64,000 bases of DNA. Origin: a virus. Taxonomy: Duplodnaviria; Heunggongvirae; Uroviricota; Caudoviricetes. Under the pieces are notes generated by a model, which worked only from the letters and a program-made list of their open reading frames with translations, did not search any database and was not told the origin of the DNA. Positions within the stretch are counted from its first letter, which is position 1; every line of letters starts with the position of its first letter. The stretch spans positions 5,938 to 69,937 of the IMG/VR virus record IMGVR_UViG_3300021399_000137; one strand, written 5' to 3'. Of this stretch, positions 31,238-49,150 are shown in pieces. Both the position numbers and the translations under genes were made by a program.

Positions 31238-32746
31238 TTAATTATCTTCATTAATATTTTTATTTAATATGTCAGATGTTTTTGCTGTAGCATAACCTGT
31301 AATTAAAGATTTTAAATCTAATCCTAAACTATCTTGAGCTACTTTAAGTATCTTATCTATTTTTTGAGTATTTTCTTCTATTAATTTAGTTGATTGGTCA
31401 CCATACATTGTAATAGTATCAACATTTGTAAGTGGGGCTGATACTTCTTTTGCAATATCTGGTAATACTTTACATATCATTTCTACTATAGAAGCTTGTT
31501 TCATTTTAGCTTGAGCCTCAGCTTTCTTTTCTATACCCTCAGCTTCTGCTAAAGCTTTAGCTTTTACACCTTCAGCCTCTGCAAGTAATTGAGCTTTTCT
31601 ACCTTCAGCTTCTGCTTCCATTTTAGCTTTAATACCTGCAGCTTCTAATTCCATAGATTGCTTATTAGCTTCTGCTATTTTAATCTTAGCTTGAGCTTGA
31701 TATTCAGCTTCTTTAGCATCTGCTTCTGCTTTTTGTATTCTAGCCTCTTTATTAGCTATAGCCTCTTGTTCTATTTTATATTTATCAGCGTCTGCCTGTT
31801 TTCTAACTAAAGCATCTAATTCTTTTTCTTTTAGAGCTACTTCTTTTTCTTTAAGTTCAGTCATCTTTTCTGCTTTAGCTACTTCTGCAGCTACAGTATT
31901 CTCATTTACTAATTTTTGTTGTTCTGCTTTTTGAATATCATATACAGTATCAGCTTCTGCTTTTTTCTTGTCTTGTTCAATTTTATATGTTGCTTTTTTA
32001 ATTTCTAATTCTTTTTGTTGTTCTGCAATTTTAGCATCTGCTTCTGCTCTAGCTTTAGCTCCCTCTTCATCTGCTAAAGACTCTGCAATTTTAATTTCTT
32101 TTTCTGCTTGAGCTTTGGCTATTTTAGCCGTTTTTTGAATATTAGATAAATTATCTATACCTAAATCTGTAATAGCGTTATTCTCGTCTGTACAAGATTG
32201 TACGTTTAATGATACTATTTCTAAACCTATTCTATTAATATCATCTTTAGCATTTTCTTGAATTTTTTCTGAAAATAATTTTTTATTATTTACTAAATCT
32301 TTTAGGTTCATTTGACCTATAATTTCTCTCATATTACCTTCTAGAACTTGTTGTACATTTGTTGCAATATAATTAGAAGATTGATTTAAAAAATGTTGTG
32401 CTGCTATCTGAATAAGAGCATCATCTTTAGGTATTCTTACATTAGCTACAGCATCCACATCAACATTTATAAAATCTGATGTTGGTACTCTACTAGTTCT
32501 AACATCTATTTGAATTAATTCTAAAGTTAATTTATCAACTCTCTCAAAGAAAGGTATTCTTAATGTTGCTTTTCCTATTAATACCCTAGGTTCTTTTCTT
32601 AAACCTGATATTAAATACACCATATCTGGTGGACATTTTACATAGCTTACTGCTATAAATGTAATTAAAAGTAATATAATTACTCCTATAATTATTGCTA
32701 TAATCATATTTACAAACCTCCTATAAATTATTCTACAATTTTCCAA
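31238..32746 (-). CDS. Flotillin-like SPFH/band-7 membrane protein
   Basis: N-terminal TM helix, SPFH core (...LIGKATLRIPFFERVDKLTLELIQIDV...), and a long coiled coil with EA/AEAEG repeats as in FloT/YuaG. Confidence 0.7.
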   Translation of the reverse strand: MENCRIIYRRFVNMIIAIIIGVIILLLITFIAVSYVKCPPDMVYLISGLRKEPRVLIGKATLRIPFFERVDKLTLELIQIDVRTSRVPTSDFINVDVDAVANVRIPKDDALIQIAAQHFLNQSSNYIATNVQQVLEGNMREIIGQMNLKDLVNNKKLFSEKIQENAKDDINRIGLEIVSLNVQSCTDENNAITDLGIDNLSNIQKTAKIAKAQAEKEIKIAESLADEEGAKARAEADAKIAEQQKELEIKKATYKIEQDKKKAEADTVYDIQKAEQQKLVNENTVAAEVAKAEKMTELKEKEVALKEKELDALVRKQADADKYKIEQEAIANKEARIQKAEADAKEAEYQAQAKIKIAEANKQSMELEAAGIKAKMEAEAEGRKAQLLAEAEGVKAKALAEAEGIEKKAEAQAKMKQASIVEMICKVLPDIAKEVSAPLTNVDTITMYGDQSTKLIEENTQKIDKILKVAQDSLGLDLKSLITGYATAKTSDILNKNINEDN

Positions 32747-32982
32747 TCTTCTGATAACATATCAGCTTGACTTGCTAGCCATCCCAATTGAACACCAGAA
32801 GTTCCTATAAATGCAATAGCTTTATTTCCCATAGCATCATGATTAACATTAATAATCTCATTATTACTATTTACATAACTAATATTAGTTGCTAATTCTA
32901 TATATTGATTTTTACCATTCCATCCATTACGTTGAACTTTCTTTCCTTGCTTTAATGCTTCTAAAGCTTCTCCAAAATTCAT
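32728..32982 (-). CDS. Small phage protein, DUF2829-like
   Basis: MNFGEALEALKQGKKVQRNGWNGKN N-terminus matches a family I recognise from phage genomes. Confidence 0.4.
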   Translation of the reverse strand: MNFGEALEALKQGKKVQRNGWNGKNQYIELATNISYVNSNNEIINVNHDAMGNKAIAFIGTSGVQLGWLASQADMLSEDWKIVE

Positions 32983-33324: not shown

Positions 33325-33395
33325 GTGGAGAGATATATTGGAATTGAACCAATAATAAGAATATAAAATTCTTGCTAAACCATTAGCTAATATCT
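33325..33395 (-). tRNA. tRNA with anticodon UUA in the canonical fold (candidate ochre suppressor)
   Basis: Minus strand GAGATAT-TA-GCTA-ATGGTT-TAGC-AAGAA-TTTTATA-TTCTT-ATT-ATTGG-TTCAATT-CCAAT-ATATCTC-T-CCA. All four stems are perfect. It is compact (no nt 26, 3-nt variable loop). Anticodon-loop positions give 5'-UUA-3'. Confidence 0.5.
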
Positions 33396-33475
33396 CATGT
33401 AAGGGATTTTGATTTTATTTTCGGAGGAGTCTCCCTAACTTATACTCAACTCTTATCTGGGAGCTACCCAGCCTC

Positions 33476-33551
33476 TGGTTGCGCAGGTAGGACTCGAACC
33501 TACGACCTTGAGGTTATGGGCCTCACGAGCTACCAACTGCTCTACCACGCG
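33476..33551 (-). tRNA. Initiator-type tRNA-Met (CAU) with C1-A72 mismatch
   Basis: Minus strand CGCGTGG-TA-GAGC-AGTTGGTA-GCTC-G-TGAGG-CCCATAA-CCTCA-AGGTC-GTAGG-TTCGAGT-CCTAC-CTGCGCA-A-CCA. Closely parallels E. coli tRNA-fMet, including the unpaired 1:72 and the GCAACCA end. Confidence 0.7.
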
Positions 33552-33850: not shown

Positions 33851-34477
33851 TTATTTTATGCCTGAATTACCAAATCCTGTATCACCACGATTAGTATTCA
33901 TTACTTGTTCTCTAGTTAAATTATTTACTTTTAACCAATCATCTAATGGAATAAAATCAAAAGCATAGGTCTTTACTATATTTATAGAGCAAACTCTATC
34001 TCCTTTATGAACTTCTATATCTTTATCTCCATTATTTTGAATTAAAGCATTAATAATTCCTCTATAATTACAATCTACCCAAGGTTCTCCTACATCTATA
34101 GGAGCTCCATAGATATTTCCTAAATAGCATCCACCCCTATTTACTGAATGAACACCATAACCAGTAGGAATTATCATACCTATACCTAAAGAAACTTTTT
34201 CTGCAGAATGAGCTTTAATTACTTTATCTTCATTAAGATAAGCATCATAACCTATATCGCCTTCTTTTTTTCTTTCAGGTAACTTAGCTCCGTCTTCTAG
34301 CCAGTAAGGTACTGGTATTTTAGGTTCCATATTTAATTGTTCATGAATTTGTTTAGCCAAAATAGTATAAATTTCAGCATTAGTTTTTACTGTTGCTTCT
34401 AAGTCTTCTAATTTTTTCTCTAATTCAGAAACTCTTACTCTTAATTTATCAAGTTCAATATGATTAATATCGCTCAT
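33851..34477 (-). CDS. dUTPase-family nucleotidohydrolase (dUTPase or dCTPase/dUTPase) with ~55-aa N-terminal coiled-coil extension
   Basis: dUTPase motifs GDIGYDAY, GDRVCSI, and C-terminal RGDTGFGNSG. Confidence 0.7.
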   Translation of the reverse strand: MSDINHIELDKLRVRVSELEKKLEDLEATVKTNAEIYTILAKQIHEQLNMEPKIPVPYWLEDGAKLPERKKEGDIGYDAYLNEDKVIKAHSAEKVSLGIGMIIPTGYGVHSVNRGGCYLGNIYGAPIDVGEPWVDCNYRGIINALIQNNGDKDIEVHKGDRVCSINIVKTYAFDFIPLDDWLKVNNLTREQVMNTNRGDTGFGNSGIK

Positions 34478-34502
34478 TTCTATAAACCTCCTATAATATT
34501 TA

Positions 34503-34772
34503 TTATGAATTATTTGTGCTTAAATTATTGTACTCATTTAAAACAGCTTTATGAATTATTTCTCTTGCTGTAGAATTTATAGGATGAGCTATATCTGAAA
34601 AACCGTCTGGTGTTCTTTTACTTGGCATAGCTACAAATATTCCTTTTTCTCCATTTATAATTTTAATTCCATGAATAGCAATTTCATCATCTATTACTAT
34701 AGATGCTACTGCTAATAATCTGCTATCTTCTCTTCCACTAACTTCATTTACTCTAACGTTTGTTATTTTCAT
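34503..34772 (-). CDS. spoVG: SpoVG family protein
   Basis: MKITNVRVNEV...LAVASIVIDDEIAIHGIKIINGEKGIFVAMPSKRTPDGFSDIAHPINSTAREIIHKAVLNEY aligns along its whole length with SpoVG. Confidence 0.75.
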   Translation of the reverse strand: MKITNVRVNEVSGREDSRLLAVASIVIDDEIAIHGIKIINGEKGIFVAMPSKRTPDGFSDIAHPINSTAREIIHKAVLNEYNNLSTNNS

Positions 34773-34816
34773 ACTTTATAAATCTCCATTCTATATTAAT
34801 TTTATTTTATATTTGT

Positions 34817-34842
34817 GTTCACCAGAATTAATTCTGGTGAAC
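34817..34842. promoter_or_regulatory. Perfect 26-bp palindrome, hairpin-forming
   Basis: GTTCACCAGAATTAATTCTGGTGAAC between the ThyA-like gene and spoVG. The T-run is on the plus side only. Confidence 0.35.
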
Positions 34843-34863
34843 TTTTATATTAAAGATGATAAA

Positions 34864-35664
34864 TTACATATCATAATTAATAATTCCCATATTTTCACAT
34901 ATAGTTTTAAATTTTTCTTTTGACTCCCAGCATTCATCTACTTGTGCTTCAAGATATTTTAAATTATCATCATTCCATAACTCATCCAATTTATAATAAA
35001 CTGGAATTTCATTATCATCATTAATAATTTTTTCTAGTAAATCATAATCTCTTTCATACACATGTAATGATGTATCAAAATGAGTATATGGTCCACATTC
35101 TAACCCTAATCTATGAGCTACATATTTCTGTAATTCTGTAAAATATACGATGTCGAATGTTAAACCTTTAATCAAATCATTACTTCTCATACACACAGTA
35201 GAGCATAGTTTATTATCTCTTATATAATAATGCAAAAACATTGTACATTGAGTATCTCTAGTTACCATTCTATGTCTATCAGGTGTATTAATATTTATTA
35301 CAGCTCTTCTAGAATTTGGATTTCTTCTTAATTCATCAATAGCACATTCTAATTGGTCAAATCCATGTTTATATTTTATAATATATCCATATGCAGAATT
35401 AGCTGTTTTACCATCATCAGAAATATTTCTCCAAAATTTAGAAAAATGGTCTATAAATTCTATGTCGTTTCTTCCTGACCAATACCATATTAATTCGCCT
35501 ATAGCGTAAATCATAGCTTTATCTCTACAACTTAATGTAAGAACATTATTATCTAAATCATTAAAAACAAATTTTTCGTTTAATAATTCTTTAGTTCCAT
35601 TTACCTCTGGAGCCTTTAATAATTTACTGGCTAAATCCTTAAAAAGTGTATTTATTTCTAACAT
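34864..35664 (-). CDS. ThyA-family pyrimidine C5-modifying enzyme with Asp at the specificity position (dCMP hydroxymethylase/methylase-like)
   Basis: RNPNSRRAVINI and catalytic Cys in TQCTMFLHYY. In ...CMRSNDLIKGLTFDIVYF the residue aligned with E. coli TS Asn177 is Asp, as in T4 dCMP hydroxymethylase Asp179. Confidence 0.7.
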   Translation of the reverse strand: MLEINTLFKDLASKLLKAPEVNGTKELLNEKFVFNDLDNNVLTLSCRDKAMIYAIGELIWYWSGRNDIEFIDHFSKFWRNISDDGKTANSAYGYIIKYKHGFDQLECAIDELRRNPNSRRAVININTPDRHRMVTRDTQCTMFLHYYIRDNKLCSTVCMRSNDLIKGLTFDIVYFTELQKYVAHRLGLECGPYTHFDTSLHVYERDYDLLEKIINDDNEIPVYYKLDELWNDDNLKYLEAQVDECWESKEKFKTICENMGIINYDM

Positions 35665-35683
35665 AATATCAATCTCCTTTCAA

Positions 35684-36799
35684 TTATATATTATGCTTAT
35701 TCTTTATATCTTCGAATATTTCAAAACAATCTTTTATAACATCATCCATATCAAAATACTTATACTTTCCAAGTCTACCTGCAAAGATTACTTTGTCTTG
35801 TTTATCTGCTAATTTTTTATATTTTTCATATAAATCTAAATTCTTTTTATCAGTCATAGGATAATATGGTTCTCCTGAAGCTTGAGGATATTCAAATGTT
35901 ATAATAGAAGTGTCTGTTTTTACAGGATTAAACCACTTATGTTCTATTACTCTTGTGTAAGGTCTTTTGTTATCAGTATAATTAACTACTGCGTTACCTT
36001 GATAATTAGATTGATTTATTTCTTTATTAATAAATTTTAAACTTCTATATTCTAATTCTCCATATTTATAATTAAAATATTCATCTATCTTGCCAGTGTA
36101 TATAATATAGTCATAAATGTCTTCATAAGTACTTCTATTTTTAATAAAATCTTTATCTAACATGATATTACATCCTTCTAACATTTTTTCTATCATATTA
36201 GTATATCCATTTACTGGAATTCCTTGATAAATATCGTTAAAATAATTATTGTCGTAAATCATTCTTAGTGGTAATCTTTTAATTATATCTGGACTTAATT
36301 CAGTACAAGATTTACCCCATTGTTTTTCAGTATAACCTTTTATTAATTTTTCATATACAGTTGTTCCAACCATATTTATAGCTTGGTCTTCTAAATTTTC
36401 TATAGTAGGATGTTCTTCTTTATAAGCATCGATTTCTTTTTGTATAATTTCTTCTACTTCATTAGGCCATCTAGTATTAAACATTTTACTAAATGTATTC
36501 ATATTAAACGGTAAATTATAAAGCTCATCGTTTTCTGTTACTGCCAATGGGCTATTTATAAAATTATTAAATTTTGCAAACCTATTTATAAATGACCAAA
36601 CTTCTTCATCACTAGTATGAAATATATGAGGTCCATACTTATGAATATCTATTCCTTTATCTTTATATGTATAACAGTTTCCTGCTATGCGATTTCGACG
36701 GTCAATTACAGTTATTGCATGGCCATCTTCAATTAATAGTCTAGCTAAAGTAGCTCCAGCTAAACCTGCTCCCACAATTAAATAATTAGACATTTTCAT
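35684..36799 (-). CDS. glf: UDP-galactopyranose mutase
   Basis: YLIVGAGLAGATLA...ITVIDRRNRIAGNCYT...IHKYGPHIFHT...NSPLAV...YNLPFNMNTF is collinear with bacterial Glf (FAD-binding GxGxxG). Confidence 0.85.
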   Translation of the reverse strand: MKMSNYLIVGAGLAGATLARLLIEDGHAITVIDRRNRIAGNCYTYKDKGIDIHKYGPHIFHTSDEEVWSFINRFAKFNNFINSPLAVTENDELYNLPFNMNTFSKMFNTRWPNEVEEIIQKEIDAYKEEHPTIENLEDQAINMVGTTVYEKLIKGYTEKQWGKSCTELSPDIIKRLPLRMIYDNNYFNDIYQGIPVNGYTNMIEKMLEGCNIMLDKDFIKNRSTYEDIYDYIIYTGKIDEYFNYKYGELEYRSLKFINKEINQSNYQGNAVVNYTDNKRPYTRVIEHKWFNPVKTDTSIITFEYPQASGEPYYPMTDKKNLDLYEKYKKLADKQDKVIFAGRLGKYKYFDMDDVIKDCFEIFEDIKNKHNI

Positions 36800-37829
36800 C
36801 TACTTCCTTTTTCTTAGATTTAGTAATATGTTTCTCGTTCCACTCATTTATTTTATCTTGCCATAATTCTGTAAATCCTATATAATCTATTTCTTGAGTT
36901 TCGTTAAAGAAATACTTATACCACTCATTATTATATATAGGAACTAGCGTATGTTTTTCAGCTAAATCCTTCTTTATTCTACTCCATTTAAATGTAGAAT
37001 TTAGTTGACCTTTATCTACTTTAAAGCCTACATATTCTCCCCAAGTCTTATATAAATTCATAGACTTTTTAGTCCAAGTATAATCTCCGCCTGAAGCTAT
37101 AGATTTTTTAGGTGTCATTGTATCACCAGAATAAGTTAACCATCCAATATTTATTGTGTCTAATCCATTCTTATATACTTGTAATTGAACATCAAAATCA
37201 TCCCAAGCTTCTATATTATTATAACTAATATTATATTGATTAAACAAATTAGTATTAATATAAGCTATTTGACATATTCTGCCTGACTTAGTATAATAAG
37301 GTAATGTTTCTAAATCTTGACACCAACTAGATGCTTCTGAAATTACACCTCCTAAAGCTGGTTTATAATCAGCAATATTATGAATTACATAATACCAAGT
37401 TTTAAAGAATTGTTCTGGTGTAATTTCTACTTTTTCAGCCTTATATTTACCTGATTTAGTTAGACCTGGTCTAGTATAATATAATTTTGTAATGTCATCG
37501 TCTAATATAAAGTAATCTTCAAATCCCATTTTAAGCATGTTAGCTTGAACAAAATCTCTTTTCTTAGCAGCTCCTCTAAATTCTTGAGATGGACATAATA
37601 CTACTCCTATATTATTAGACGCTTCAACTTCTTCTTTATAATTAATGTAATCATCATCATATACGAATAAATATGTTGGAATATTAGTATTTTTCATCAA
37701 TTGAATTGATGAAGCTTGACCTCCTCTTTTATATGATATAATTACTACAGGAGCTATAACTTTTTTACTATATTCTTCAGTAGCAGTATTTACTAATTCT
37801 GTAGTCCAATTTAAACTTCTATTTTCCAT
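36786..37829 (-). CDS. Putative GT-A-fold glycosyltransferase (DxD-type)
   Basis: N-terminal PVVIISYKRGG beta-strand/Rossmann-like start and FILDDDITKL DxD motif. Overlaps glf by 14 nt and the kinase gene by 11 nt, suggesting translational coupling. Confidence 0.45.
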   Translation of the reverse strand: MENRSLNWTTELVNTATEEYSKKVIAPVVIISYKRGGQASSIQLMKNTNIPTYLFVYDDDYINYKEEVEASNNIGVVLCPSQEFRGAAKKRDFVQANMLKMGFEDYFILDDDITKLYYTRPGLTKSGKYKAEKVEITPEQFFKTWYYVIHNIADYKPALGGVISEASSWCQDLETLPYYTKSGRICQIAYINTNLFNQYNISYNNIEAWDDFDVQLQVYKNGLDTINIGWLTYSGDTMTPKKSIASGGDYTWTKKSMNLYKTWGEYVGFKVDKGQLNSTFKWSRIKKDLAEKHTLVPIYNNEWYKYFFNETQEIDYIGFTELWQDKINEWNEKHITKSKKKEVDENV

Positions 37830-38319
37830 AATAATTCCTTTCTATCTCTTTAAAAAATTCTATTTGGTCTTTATTTTTACTGATATCTAAAGCAAATACG
37901 TTATCATAAGTATTAGAAAAAATATTAGCTAACATAGTATAAAGAATATTAATTTTCTCTGCGTTTGCTAAAACTTGTTCAGTATCTCCTCTTTTAAATA
38001 ATCTTTCTTTTAAATCTTCAAAATTAGATGCAAAGAAAATAATATAAATAACAGACTTCTCTTTACAAACATTCATAAATTCTAATTGTTCTAACCAAGT
38101 CATCTTAGGTTCTCTATGATATATTATGGGATATACAATCTCGCCTAAATTACATCTATCACATACCACGCTGTCATATTTGATTAAATCTAAATGATAT
38201 TGTAAATCATTTTTAGTATCAGAGCTTGAGTGCTCTATATCCATATTTCTATTTTGCTCTAAAAATCTAGCTAAAGTTGATTTACCTATACCATCACAAC
38301 CTTCTAAAATAACATTCAT
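37819..38319 (-). CDS. Deoxynucleoside monophosphate kinase (Tmk/dNK-like P-loop kinase)
   Basis: P-loop ILEGCDGIGKSTLA at the N-terminus; 166 aa. Confidence 0.6.
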   Translation of the reverse strand: MNVILEGCDGIGKSTLARFLEQNRNMDIEHSSSDTKNDLQYHLDLIKYDSVVCDRCNLGEIVYPIIYHREPKMTWLEQLEFMNVCKEKSVIYIIFFASNFEDLKERLFKRGDTEQVLANAEKINILYTMLANIFSNTYDNVFALDISKNKDQIEFFKEIERNYYGK

Positions 38320-48868: not shown

Positions 48869-49150
48869 TTAATTTTCTCCTCTATATTCTTCTAATATAG
48901 CATATAAGATTTCTTGTCTAGTATCTTCTTTTATAGGAAATGCTATGTTTCTTCCTTTGTCATCATTTGGGAATTTTAAATATTCTCCTTTAACACCAGT
49001 CATTAATCTTATTCCTTTAATAACAACGCTATAATCAATTACTAAATCTATTGTTGCTAAAAAATTTCTATCTAATGGATGTTCTTTTCTATAATTATCA
49101 TCTATTTTAGTCATGTCTATTTTAGTTATAATCATTTTAATAACCTCCAA
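48869..49150 (-). CDS. Divergent SpoVG-like protein (second paralog)
   Basis: LATIDLVIDYSVVIKGIRLMTGVKGEYLKFP...RNIAFPI...RQEILYAILEEY follows the SpoVG pattern A.A.I..D..F.I..IR...G..G.F..MP...R.IA.PI...R..I...VL.EY. Confidence 0.45.
   Translation of the reverse strand: MEVIKMIITKIDMTKIDDNYRKEHPLDRNFLATIDLVIDYSVVIKGIRLMTGVKGEYLKFPNDDKGRNIAFPIKEDTRQEILYAILEEYRGEN

Follow-up and report, generated by a model that had tools for sequence, protein, structure and literature searches.

A predicted cytosine-hypermodification island encoding a UDP-galactopyranose mutase in a T4-like gut phage

T-even phages combine a dCMP hydroxymethylase (T4 gp42) and a dedicated nucleotide kinase (gp1) with pool-shaping enzymes (gp56, dCMP deaminase) and with glycosylation after replication by the GT-B enzymes alpha-GT and beta-GT, which draw on host UDP-glucose; in T2 and T6 a TAGT-family enzyme glucosylates glucosyl-hmC (PMC13216743, PMC13390438). 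Metavirome clusters of GT-A glycosyltransferases (GTs) with ThyS/5mYOX genes were catalogued by Pyle et al. in 2023, and the GTs associated with thymidylate-synthase homologs and dCMP deaminase form a large class, in which enzymes with an R...DDD...EDY/F motif attach sugars directly to 5-hydroxymethylcytosine (5-hmC); the products carry hexose, HexNAc or heptose, and sugar epimerases are also reported (bioRxiv 10.1101/2023.12.21.572611). A text search of that preprint returned no mutase or furanose. In 2026, DNA galactosylation fed by a phage UDP-galactopyranose mutase (Glf) was proposed for Rhizobium phage RL38J1 of the Pootjesviridae, whose DNA bears galactosyl-(glucosyl)n-5-hydroxycytosine; galactose is the sugar next to the base, and its donor, in the authors' proposal, is UDP-galactofuranose (UDP-Galf) (PMC13326640). 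Among siphoviruses, Lactobacillus phage ATCCB (MK504445) carries a ThyA homolog, a homolog of the T4 DNA beta-GT and Glf side by side, genes that go unmentioned in a paper on this phage. In Enterococcus phage VPE25, which has no Glf, a dUTPase gene lies between those of the ThyA homolog and the beta-GT, and the DNA of VPE25 and of VFW was shown to be cytosine-modified and to resist bisulfite conversion (PMC4999554). The initial annotation of the locus presented here had found no described DNA modification to match it, a view that the 2023 clusters, RL38J1 (with 5-hydroxycytosine, not 5-hmC) and ATCCB do not sustain: the class is already known, and the novelty lies in a variation of an established anti-restriction strategy, with a sugar that the phage's own enzyme probably makes.

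The DNA analysed is a window of 64,000 nucleotides from a 118.6 kb metagenomic contig known from sequence alone, and the part examined, roughly 70 kb, comprised this window together with some 6 kb of the contig on its left side. This part contains T4-like structural (portal, capsid, tail, baseplate) and replication genes and, over these roughly 70 kb, no integrase was seen. The source is a T4-like gut phage, and its host is probably a low-GC Firmicute. Genes for additional GTs, for a dedicated dCTPase or for a canonical thymidylate synthase may lie in the remaining ~48 kb of the contig. The island (33851-38319, minus strand) reads, in order, kinase, GT-A glycosyltransferase, Glf, ThyA homolog, SpoVG and dUTPase-family protein, and the gene identities, residue signatures and conservation described below are direct observations. 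Profile searches identified every gene that the initial annotation had named, all on the minus strand, and its proposal of translational coupling among kinase, GT and Glf agrees with the reading-frame overlaps of 11 nt (kinase/GT) and 14 nt (GT/Glf); the ThyA homolog follows Glf after a gap of 19 nt. FolD (29564-30445, minus strand; PF02882 7.5e-57, PF00763 5.3e-30) and a dCMP deaminase-family protein (49137-49871, minus strand; PF00383 3.2e-16) were likewise found elsewhere in the window, as it had reported. The gene content supports the reading of the island as a putative DNA-hypermodification cluster built around a dCMP-specific ThyA homolog.

The ThyA-superfamily enzyme (34864-35664, 266 aa; PF00303 3e-28) is a predicted folate-dependent dCMP 5-hydroxymethylase. 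It scores far under every NCBIfam thymidylate-synthase equivalog cut-off (82.7 vs 327 bits), and its top PDB match is the CMP 5-hydroxymethylase MilA (4e-27). We aligned it to E. coli ThyA, whose numbering is used here and whose reference sequence was checked against published residue numbering. The equivalents of E58, W80, Y94, R126, the catalytic C146, R166, S167, D169, H207 and Y209 are retained. Asp occupies the base-specificity position N177, as expected from the initial annotation, and also the L143 position, three residues before the catalytic Cys. In the same alignment T4 gp42 shows an identical pattern, whereas RB69 gp48 and RL38J1 gp216, both proven 5-hydroxy-dCMP synthases, show the published D169N, E58F, W80A and G173V (PMC13326640). 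G173 is retained in the window enzyme along with D169, E58 and W80, and the combination of Asp at N177 and L143 with a kept D169 is the gp42 signature and not the D169N signature described in 2026. The ribonucleotide preference of MilA is set by A176 and K133 (PMC5175136), and these positions are Ser and Arg in the window enzyme, the deoxyribose type. Its closest relatives from isolated phages are the ThyA homologs of VPE25 and VFW (42-49% identity), identity to T4 gp42 is about 28%, and its lineage is VPE25/MilA-like and not that of gp42. The signature fits a T4 gp42-type dCMP hydroxymethylase that would add hydroxymethyl rather than hydroxy or methyl, in line with the hydroxymethylcytosine first suggested for this locus; the rule that relates the L143 position to a hydroxymethyl or a methyl product is correlative rather than a demonstrated determinant.

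Profile search of the putative glycosyltransferase gene (36786-37829, minus strand, 347 aa), a check suggested in the initial annotation, returned PF20691 TAGT (5.3e-13; 49.8 bits vs a gathering cut-off of 27.5), a family in which the enzymes characterised so far glycosylate DNA. The protein also matches phrog_842 'beta-glucosyl-HMC-alpha-glucosyltransferase' (7.3e-11), PF20691 is carried by 30/30 of its database homologs, and R35, D110-D112 (the DDD motif) and D210-D211-F212 are invariant across 20 homologs. Its AlphaFold model (pLDDT 82.8) has as best viral structural matches annotated TAGT proteins (5e-15 and weaker), among them a T-even-type second glucosyltransferase (2e-10), and only weak GT-A folds in the PDB. 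The founding TAGT of T2/T6 has as its acceptor a base that already bears glucose and not bare 5-hmC, which counts against our proposal; what suggests direct action on 5-hmC is the 2023 preprint and the lack of any other recognisable GT here. The gene overlapping it downstream (35684-36799, minus strand, 371 aa; PF03275 2e-76) encodes Glf, which by the curated threshold of the NCBIfam equivalog TIGR00031 (390 bits vs a cut-off of 303.75) qualifies as a bona fide UGM, with PDB matches to 4mo2 (2.3e-127) and to 1i8t, the E. coli UGM (9.5e-122), and 40% identity to the Glf of RL38J1.

Upstream of the GT, a P-loop nucleotide monophosphate kinase (37819-38319, minus strand, 166 aa) matches phrog_761 thymidylate kinase (4.5e-14), with weak matches to Pfam Thymidylate_kin and NCBIfam dTMP kinase. 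It is homologous to unannotated ORFs directly upstream of the ThyA homologs of VPE25 (30% identity, 5.6e-14) and ATCCB (31%, 2.6e-10), and in a jumbo-phage contig, L041, kinase and ThyA homolog form one fused 437-aa ORF. Cognate dNMP kinases have been co-expressed to drive a modified base into DNA (PMC13326640). At the other end of the island lies a divergent trimeric-dUTPase-family protein (33851-34477, minus strand, 208 aa; PF00692 4.8e-11), which stays under the NCBIfam dut cut-off (69.8 vs 102.55 bits) and is extended at its N-terminus by about 60 aa. We propose that it clears the dUTP and/or dCTP pool and supplies dCMP, a dCTPase activity being possible from its context.

Six distinct metagenomic contigs from related phages show the island genes in this order, with proteins 55-65% identical, and the arrangement is therefore not due to chance. 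The block kinase-TAGT-Glf is invariant in 6/6 relatives, with Glf always directly downstream of the first TAGT gene (TAGT1), and the dUTPase-family gene closes the island in all of them. Two types of enzyme occur in the ThyA slot, that of the window and that of T4 gp42; in L001, L004 and L017 its enzyme is 45-47% identical to T4 gp42 (3e-71) and about 30% to the window enzyme, indicating that two lineages of one enzyme type fill the slot.

From these observations we infer the substrates, the sugar and its linkage, and the extent of replacement, and on balance we consider it likely that the island is a T-even-type cytosine-hypermodification pathway that yields DNA with glycosylated 5-hmC, the sugar probably being donated by UDP-Galf. 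The ThyA homolog would convert dCMP to 5-hydroxymethyl-dCMP with 5,10-methylene-THF, for which FolD plausibly supplies the C1 donor, and the adjacent kinase would yield 5-hm-dCDP. Host NDP kinase would then form the triphosphate and the phage replisome would incorporate 5-hmC, while the dUTPase-family protein and, as in T4, the proposed contribution of dCMP deaminase to pyrimidine balance would shape the pools. After replication, the TAGT-family GT-A enzyme would glycosylate 5-hmC in DNA, most likely from UDP-Galf made by the phage Glf out of host UDP-galactopyranose. The product would be 5-(galactofuranosyl-oxymethyl)cytosine, in which galactofuranose is the probable sugar in view of gene adjacency and conservation, and its proposed purpose is to shield phage DNA against defences based on restriction, CRISPR and DNA glycosylases.

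A different base would result if the ThyA homolog were a flavin-dependent 5-hydroxy-dCMP synthase or a dCMP methylase, leading to glycosyl-5-hydroxycytosine or to 5-methylcytosine. N177D and an acidic L143 position are common to the window enzyme and the 5-hydroxy-dCMP synthases, and the sole published Glf-linked DNA sugar of a phage sits on 5-hydroxycytosine (PMC13326640). Nevertheless, the four positions that read N, F, A and V in both proven synthases are unchanged in the window, the phage encodes a FolD of its own, the closest relatives with a characterised role are hydroxymethylases (MilA) and enzymes from VPE25/VFW, phages of the hmC type, T4-gp42-type enzymes occupy the same slot in relatives, and with a methyl product there would be no hydroxyl to serve the GT as acceptor; we regard this as the least probable of the readings considered, and a highly improbable one.

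Another alternative concerns the sugar. The DNA may carry glycosyl-5-hmC on which TAGT places an ordinary pyranose, glucose or galactopyranose, taken from a UDP-sugar of the host; UDP-Galf would then go to some other target or to a later step catalysed by a transferase that escaped recognition. The sequence of TAGT does not reveal its donor specificity, the part examined covered roughly 70 of the 118.6 kb of the contig, L041 and a second jumbo-phage contig (L048) have extra unannotated ~350-aa proteins between or beside the GT and Glf genes, and the characterised TAGT/GT-A phage enzymes use hexose, HexNAc and heptose donors from the E. coli metabolome (bioRxiv 10.1101/2023.12.21.572611; PMC13216743). 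This reading is rather unlikely, since TAGT1 is the sole recognisable GT near Glf in the window, L004 and L017, where the genes are adjacent (overlapping in the window), no other GT Pfam match was found over the roughly 70 kb examined, and a mutase without a consuming transferase would be pointless. Galf-hmC and glucosyl-hmC have the same mass, so LC-MS alone would not tell them apart. Glf and the GT might instead act off DNA, on a host cell-wall polysaccharide or on virion proteins, with the ThyA homolog and kinase working separately in nucleotide metabolism. Galf is common in the wall glycans of Firmicutes. Glf genes of phages and prophages are mostly away from ThyA homologs (no ThyA homolog within 6 kb in 77 of the best 80 viral contigs encoding Glf, so that a phage Glf alone is no marker of DNA modification), and in an earlier annotation, that of Agrobacterium phage Atu_ph04, Glf was assigned a role in the host cell wall (PMC6630229). 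Against this, the characterised members of the GT family act on DNA, the GT lies with overlapping reading frames between a nucleotide kinase and Glf-ThyA in an order kept in six relatives, and no signal peptide or membrane segment was obvious by eye in its N-terminal sequence. Glf also adjoins hydroxymethylase genes in three further lineages (ATCCB, L041 and L048), in ATCCB paired with a T4-type beta-GT. Together with the T4-like phage and the lack of an integrase in the part examined, this makes an off-DNA role, including the lysogenic conversion that the initial annotation had named as its alternative, very unlikely.

Compared with T-even phages, the predicted glycosyl-5-hmC pathway shares the logic of a hydroxymethylase with the same active-site signature followed by a dedicated kinase, pool-shaping enzymes, dCMP deaminase and glycosylation after replication, and its GT belongs to the same Pfam family as the second glucosyltransferase of T2/T6. 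It differs in that neither alpha-GT nor beta-GT was seen in the part examined, TAGT being the sole GT there, and in that the phage encodes a sugar-nucleotide mutase, with UDP-Galf instead of host UDP-glucose as the probable donor; the kinase is Tmk-like where T4 uses gp1, and the enzyme that would shape the pools belongs to the trimeric dUTPase family where T4 uses gp56. RL38J1 shares the phage-encoded Glf and the kinase-GT-ThyA homolog arrangement (gp214-216). Its ThyA homolog, however, is of the flavin type (D169N) with the sugar ether-linked directly to C5, in contrast to the folate-type hydroxymethylase signature of the window, its Glf lies far from the ThyA cluster and not within it, and its hosts are Alphaproteobacteria instead of a probable low-GC Firmicute. 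The RL38J1 GTs were matched to different glycosyltransferase structures (PMC13326640), and gp215 gave no TAGT or other Pfam match. The clusters of Pyle et al. contain GT-A enzymes acting on 5-hmC, as proposed here, but the TET/methylase route is absent from the window. ATCCB and VPE25/VFW share the kinase and a ThyA homolog of the same lineage, and differ in using a T4 beta-GT-family enzyme (GT-B, PF09198) and not a TAGT.

The relatives also vary around the conserved block. L001, L002 and L099 have a second TAGT gene (TAGT2), which probably extends the sugar to a disaccharide and occupies the slot of a perfect 11-bp palindromic hairpin (34817-34842) read in the 91-bp ThyA/SpoVG spacer of the window. 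FolD lies beside the island in L001 (49% identity), and L002 has a split C5-cytosine methylase near it, a poor match to complete replacement of cytosine in that phage. The SpoVG homolog of the window (34503-34772, minus strand, 89 aa; PF04026 1.4e-28), a gene inside the island that was absent from the initial annotation, is flanked in 6/6 relatives by the ThyA/TAGT2 genes on one side and the dUTPase gene on the other.

The window has a G+C content of about 27%, and all genes called in the region and its surroundings lie on the minus strand. Profile searches identified, in order of transcription, a P-loop kinase of 166 aa (37819-38319), a glycosyltransferase (GT) of 347 aa (36786-37829), a UDP-galactopyranose mutase (Glf) of 371 aa (35684-36799), a ThyA homolog of 266 aa (34864-35664), SpoVG (34503-34772) and a dUTPase-family protein of 208 aa (33851-34477), all on the minus strand. 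The reading frames of the kinase and the GT overlap by 11 nt and those of the GT and Glf by 14 nt. Outside this island, the same window encodes FolD (29564-30445) and a dCMP deaminase (49137-49871). Gene calls and profile searches bore out in every particular the genes and coordinates named in the initial annotation; its inventory of the island was right for all the genes that it listed and left SpoVG unmentioned. The ThyA and dUTPase homologs scored well under the equivalog thresholds of the housekeeping enzymes, indicating that both are divergent.

To characterize the ThyA homolog, which has the thymidylate-synthase fold (PF00303, 3e-28), we aligned it with T4 gp42, RB69 gp48, RL38J1 gp216, the canonical RL38J1 ThyA, the ThyA homologs of phages VPE25 and ATCCB and those of related contigs. 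Residues are numbered as in E. coli ThyA, which was included in the alignment and whose sequence was checked against 18 published residue numbers. The alignment showed that E58, W80, Y94, R126, C146, R166, S167, D169, G173, H207 and Y209 are retained and that the position of N177 is occupied by Asp (D171 of the window protein). The position of L143 (Cys-3), which is Leu in canonical ThyAs, is also Asp, in the motif RDTQC, as it is in T4 gp42. This column was a gap in the MAFFT run; a second alignment and an ungapped count from the Cys agree on Asp. The whole active-site pattern was also seen in T4 gp42. Asp in place of Asn177 confers specificity for cytosine rather than uracil (PMC13326640, PMC5175136); acidity at the L143 position is correlated with formation of a hydroxymethyl product in place of a methyl one. 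The closest homologs from isolated phages are those of the Enterococcus phages VPE25 and VFW (42-49% identity), whose DNA is resistant to bisulfite conversion and which encode a T4-type beta-glucosyltransferase (PMC4999554). This signature, together with the relatives of the protein, suggests that the ThyA homolog is most likely a folate-dependent dCMP hydroxymethylase.

Other activities of the same fold were weighed against this one. The best solved-structure match of the ThyA homolog is MilA, a CMP 5-hydroxymethylase (4e-27), which raised the possibility of a ribonucleotide substrate. The ribonucleotide preference of MilA is due to Ala176 and Lys133 (PMC5175136); the window protein has Ser167 and Arg126 in place of this Ala and Lys, both invariant in the alignment as in deoxy-specific enzymes, and CMP specificity was rejected on these two residues. 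The Asp at N177 and the acidic L143 position are also found in ThyA homologs that, when they carry D169N as well, are flavin-dependent 5-hydroxy-dCMP synthases, as reported in 2026 (PMC13326640). In our alignment the proven synthases RB69 gp48 and RL38J1 gp216 read MRSQN and show in addition E58F, W80A and G173V. The diagnostic D169N is absent from the window protein, which reads MRSND and keeps the folate-type residues; we rejected this identity on D169, E58, W80 and G173.

Six distinct relatives (contigs L001, L002/L003, L004/L005, L017 and L099, alongside L012, the window's own contig) came from the contigs encoding GT homologs and from two IMG/VR contigs. Their proteins are 55-65% identical to those of the window, and all of them keep the order kinase-TAGT-Glf, followed by the ThyA homolog, SpoVG and the dUTPase. 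Two of the relatives, L002 and L099, have the window-type enzyme in the ThyA slot (about 52% identity). The slot of L001, L004 and L017 is taken by a member of another lineage, which shares 45-47% identity with T4 gp42 (3e-71) and only about 30% with the window ThyA homolog. The occurrence of two lineages of one enzyme type in a single slot is good evidence for dCMP hydroxymethylation as the function of this slot. A second, very divergent TAGT (TAGT2) is found between ThyA and SpoVG in L001, L002 and L099 and is missing from the window, L004 and L017. Its slot in the window is a 91-bp spacer between ThyA and SpoVG with a perfect 11-bp palindromic hairpin (34817-34842); we discarded this hairpin as a clear terminator of the ThyA transcript, since no T-run follows it on the coding (minus) strand.

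The profile search on the GT (36786-37829), a check that the initial annotation had proposed, favored a DNA glycosyltransferase. The protein matches the Pfam family of TET-associated glycosyltransferases (TAGT, PF20691) with 49.8 bits (gathering score 27.5; E 5.3e-13), a family treated as that of the T2/T6 beta-glucosyl-HMC-alpha-glucosyltransferase (PMC13216743, PMC13390438), and it also matches a PHROG family annotated as T-even beta-glucosyl-HMC-alpha-glucosyltransferase. All 30 homologs found in a large protein collection are metagenomic, and 30 of 30 are annotated as PF20691; tblastn of the GT against the phage genome collection detected no homolog. The structure that AlphaFold predicted from an alignment of 20 homologs (pLDDT 82.8) has the GT-A fold, and the DxD metal/nucleotide-sugar motif is present. 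Its best structural matches among viral models are annotated TAGT proteins (5e-15 and weaker), and the viral matches include a T-even-type second glucosyltransferase. Among PDB structures we found weak matches to generic GT-A folds only, and a PDB sequence search with the GT gave no match. Residues R35, D110-D112 and D210-D211-F212 are invariant in the homolog alignment. Mapped by position rather than by superposition, they appear to fit the R...DDD...EDY/F pattern of phage GT-A enzymes that add sugars directly to 5-hmC (bioRxiv 10.1101/2023.12.21.572611). The TAGT lies two genes from the ThyA-type hydroxymethylase, an arrangement conserved across the six relatives, and no TET was seen.

The sugar donor was approached through Glf. 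This protein passes the NCBIfam equivalog TIGR00031 (390 bits; cut-off 303.75), matches PF03275 (2e-76) and PF13450 (2.4e-20) as well as crystallised UGMs (1e-121 to 2e-127), and has an N-terminal FAD-binding Rossmann motif (VGAGLAG). The alignment places His and Lys at the positions of E. coli UGM His59 and Lys168, which are Arg59 and Arg168 in C. jejuni UNGM; these positions may set Gal versus GalNAc specificity, and a search of a paper library on the role of residues 59 and 168 in UNGM specificity found nothing. Every relative has Glf directly downstream of the main TAGT (TAGT1), and in the window the two genes overlap.

Similar gene groups were found in more distant phages. In the isolated siphovirus ATCCB, four genes stand in a row: a kinase homologous to that of the window, a ThyA homolog with 46% identity, an enzyme of the T4 beta-GT family (PF09198, 9e-22) and Glf (53%). 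Outside the clade, a stretch of 6 kb of the jumbo-phage contig L041 (IMG/VR, 394 kb) holds Glf, a TAGT (35% identity) and an ORF in which kinase and ThyA are fused. In the jumbo-phage contig L048 (IMG/VR, 300 kb), a kinase is accompanied by a dCMP deaminase, a gp42-type enzyme and a Glf that is extended by 335 aa at its C-terminus. Pootjesviridae also encode Glf, and a DNA base of RL38J1 carries galactose, for which a phage-made UDP-galactofuranose (UDP-Galf) donor has been proposed (PMC13326640). Among the viral contigs of IMG/VR that encode Glf, only 3 of the best 80 had a ThyA homolog within 6 kb of it; Glf alone is therefore not diagnostic, and we rejected it as a general marker of DNA modification in phages. 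The donor specificity of a TAGT is not readable from sequence, and by gene adjacency and conservation the sugar of the island is probably Galf.

The kinase has the P-loop GCDGIGKST and matches phrog_761 (4.5e-14). Homologous kinases adjoin the ThyA homologs of VPE25 and ATCCB, one is fused to a ThyA homolog in L041, and a Tmk-like kinase lies beside the ThyA homolog in RB69 and RL38J1 too; tblastn of the kinase against the RB69 and RL38J1 loci, these Tmk-like kinases included, showed no significant similarity. Since the linkage to ThyA homologs recurs as adjacency, as fusion and as the RB69/RL38J1 theme, the kinase most likely phosphorylates a modified mononucleotide, as a predicted functional analogue of T4 gp1. 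Conservation within the island extends to the dUTPase-family gene, and in VPE25, too, a dUTPase adjoins the ThyA homolog. Taken to its full extent, the model is that virion DNA of the clade may contain 5-(galactofuranosyl-oxymethyl)cytosine made with phage UDP-Galf, that TAGT2 would extend it to a disaccharide in some relatives and that the divergent dUTPase homolog might be the dCTPase that excludes cytosine, replacing T4 gp56; we consider this combination about evenly balanced between right and wrong.

The window belongs to a metagenomic contig of 118,646 bp (ENA ERZ12302813 NODE_151). According to the precomputed Pfam annotation, this contig encodes a T4-type portal, Gp23 capsid, prohead protease, gp13, gp19 and baseplate proteins, as well as RecA-like and Mre11/Rad50-like proteins, a clamp loader, a sigma factor and HU. 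In the window and about 6 kb of the contig to its left, the Pfam annotation includes no integrase and no GT family besides TAGT. When the island was searched by megablast in a collection of 50,697 phage records, no match was obtained; together with the tblastn result for the GT, this indicates a clade without an isolated representative in the phage collection. The clade consists of low-G+C, T4-like phages with genomes of about 110-130 kb that probably infect gut Firmicutes, the sole host hint being one homolog binned with Romboutsia.

The overall logic of the island is the same as that of the T-even phages, and its GT belongs to the same family as the second transferase of T2/T6. Clusters of GT-A enzymes and ThyA homologs were catalogued in 2023 (bioRxiv 10.1101/2023.12.21.572611), and the proposal that a phage Glf feeds DNA galactosylation, in that case on 5-hydroxycytosine, dates from 2026 (PMC13326640). 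The Glf-linked sugar of RL38J1 is on 5-hydroxycytosine, whereas the predicted base here is 5-hmC. Three elements appear to be new: an island that combines a 5-hmC-type enzyme with an in-cluster Glf and with a TAGT as its only GT, the product predicted from it (Galf-5-hmC), and the phage clade itself. Text searches of a paper library found no description of galactofuranosyl-hmC. The finding as a whole rests entirely on inference from sequence. If true, it would be the first report of a hexofuranose on 5-hmC, adding a furanose hexose to the known 5-hmC sugars, and the module of phage Glf and DNA GT would be joined to two base chemistries, that of 5-hmC in this clade and that of 5-hydroxycytosine in Pootjesviridae. 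A phage's sugar-decorated cytosines determine the restriction, CRISPR and DNA-glycosylase defences that it can escape, and they also provide enzymes for 5-hmC labelling. Glf genes of several sequenced phages, earlier read as host cell-wall functions, may serve DNA modification, and Lactobacillus phage ATCCB is identified as a cultivable test system.

Several additional observations were made in related and more distant contigs. A C5-cytosine DNA methylase split in two ORFs (236 and 177 aa) is located at 333-1560 of L002, a few kb upstream of the hmC island; it fits poorly with complete cytosine replacement, and the corresponding slot of the window holds unannotated ORFs. The fusion in L041 (1350-2663) is a single 437-aa ORF joining the kinase and the ThyA-type hydroxymethylase; the TAGT and Glf lie downstream, with a T5orf172/DUF4268 gene and an ORF of 348 aa that has no annotation in between. 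The extended Glf of L048 (6007-8064) is flanked by an unannotated 366-aa ORF on one side and by the dCMP deaminase and gp42-type enzyme on the other; its C-terminal extension of about 335 aa is without a Pfam match and might be a fused transferase. Glf (36% identity) was also detected in 19 records of T4-like Aeromonas phages, including the Tulanevirus Aes508 (L097, 6992-10771). The Aes508 gene precedes two genes for hypothetical proteins, each of about 350 aa; this group could represent a further uncharacterised Glf-linked DNA sugar system.

The window itself has other features around the island. ARAGORN predicted a tRNA whose anticodon, UUA, would pair with the stop codon UAA, at 33326-33396 on the minus strand (Rfam tRNA model, 47.3 bits), adjoining a tRNA-Met at 33476-33551 on the same strand. 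Position 37 of its anticodon loop is a pyrimidine, which is unusual. By its anticodon this tRNA could be an ochre suppressor; a quick scan for in-frame TAA read-through revealed nothing distinctive, just the ordinary in-frame adjacency expected of a compact genome. Just downstream of the island is a Tad2-like (Thoeris anti-defence) protein (32728-32982; PF11195, 6.9e-23), adjoined by an SPFH/flotillin-like protein of about 500 aa (31238-32746). SpoVG has two paralogs in the window, the island copy (34503-34772), kept in all relatives, and a second at about 48869-49150 beside the dCMP deaminase. Finally, the stretch 60152-62024 consists of three ORFs in succession (168, 279 and 128 aa); two of them have Cpn60/GroEL-family matches and the first two are contiguous in different reading frames, and the region may be a split or frameshifted chaperonin gene.
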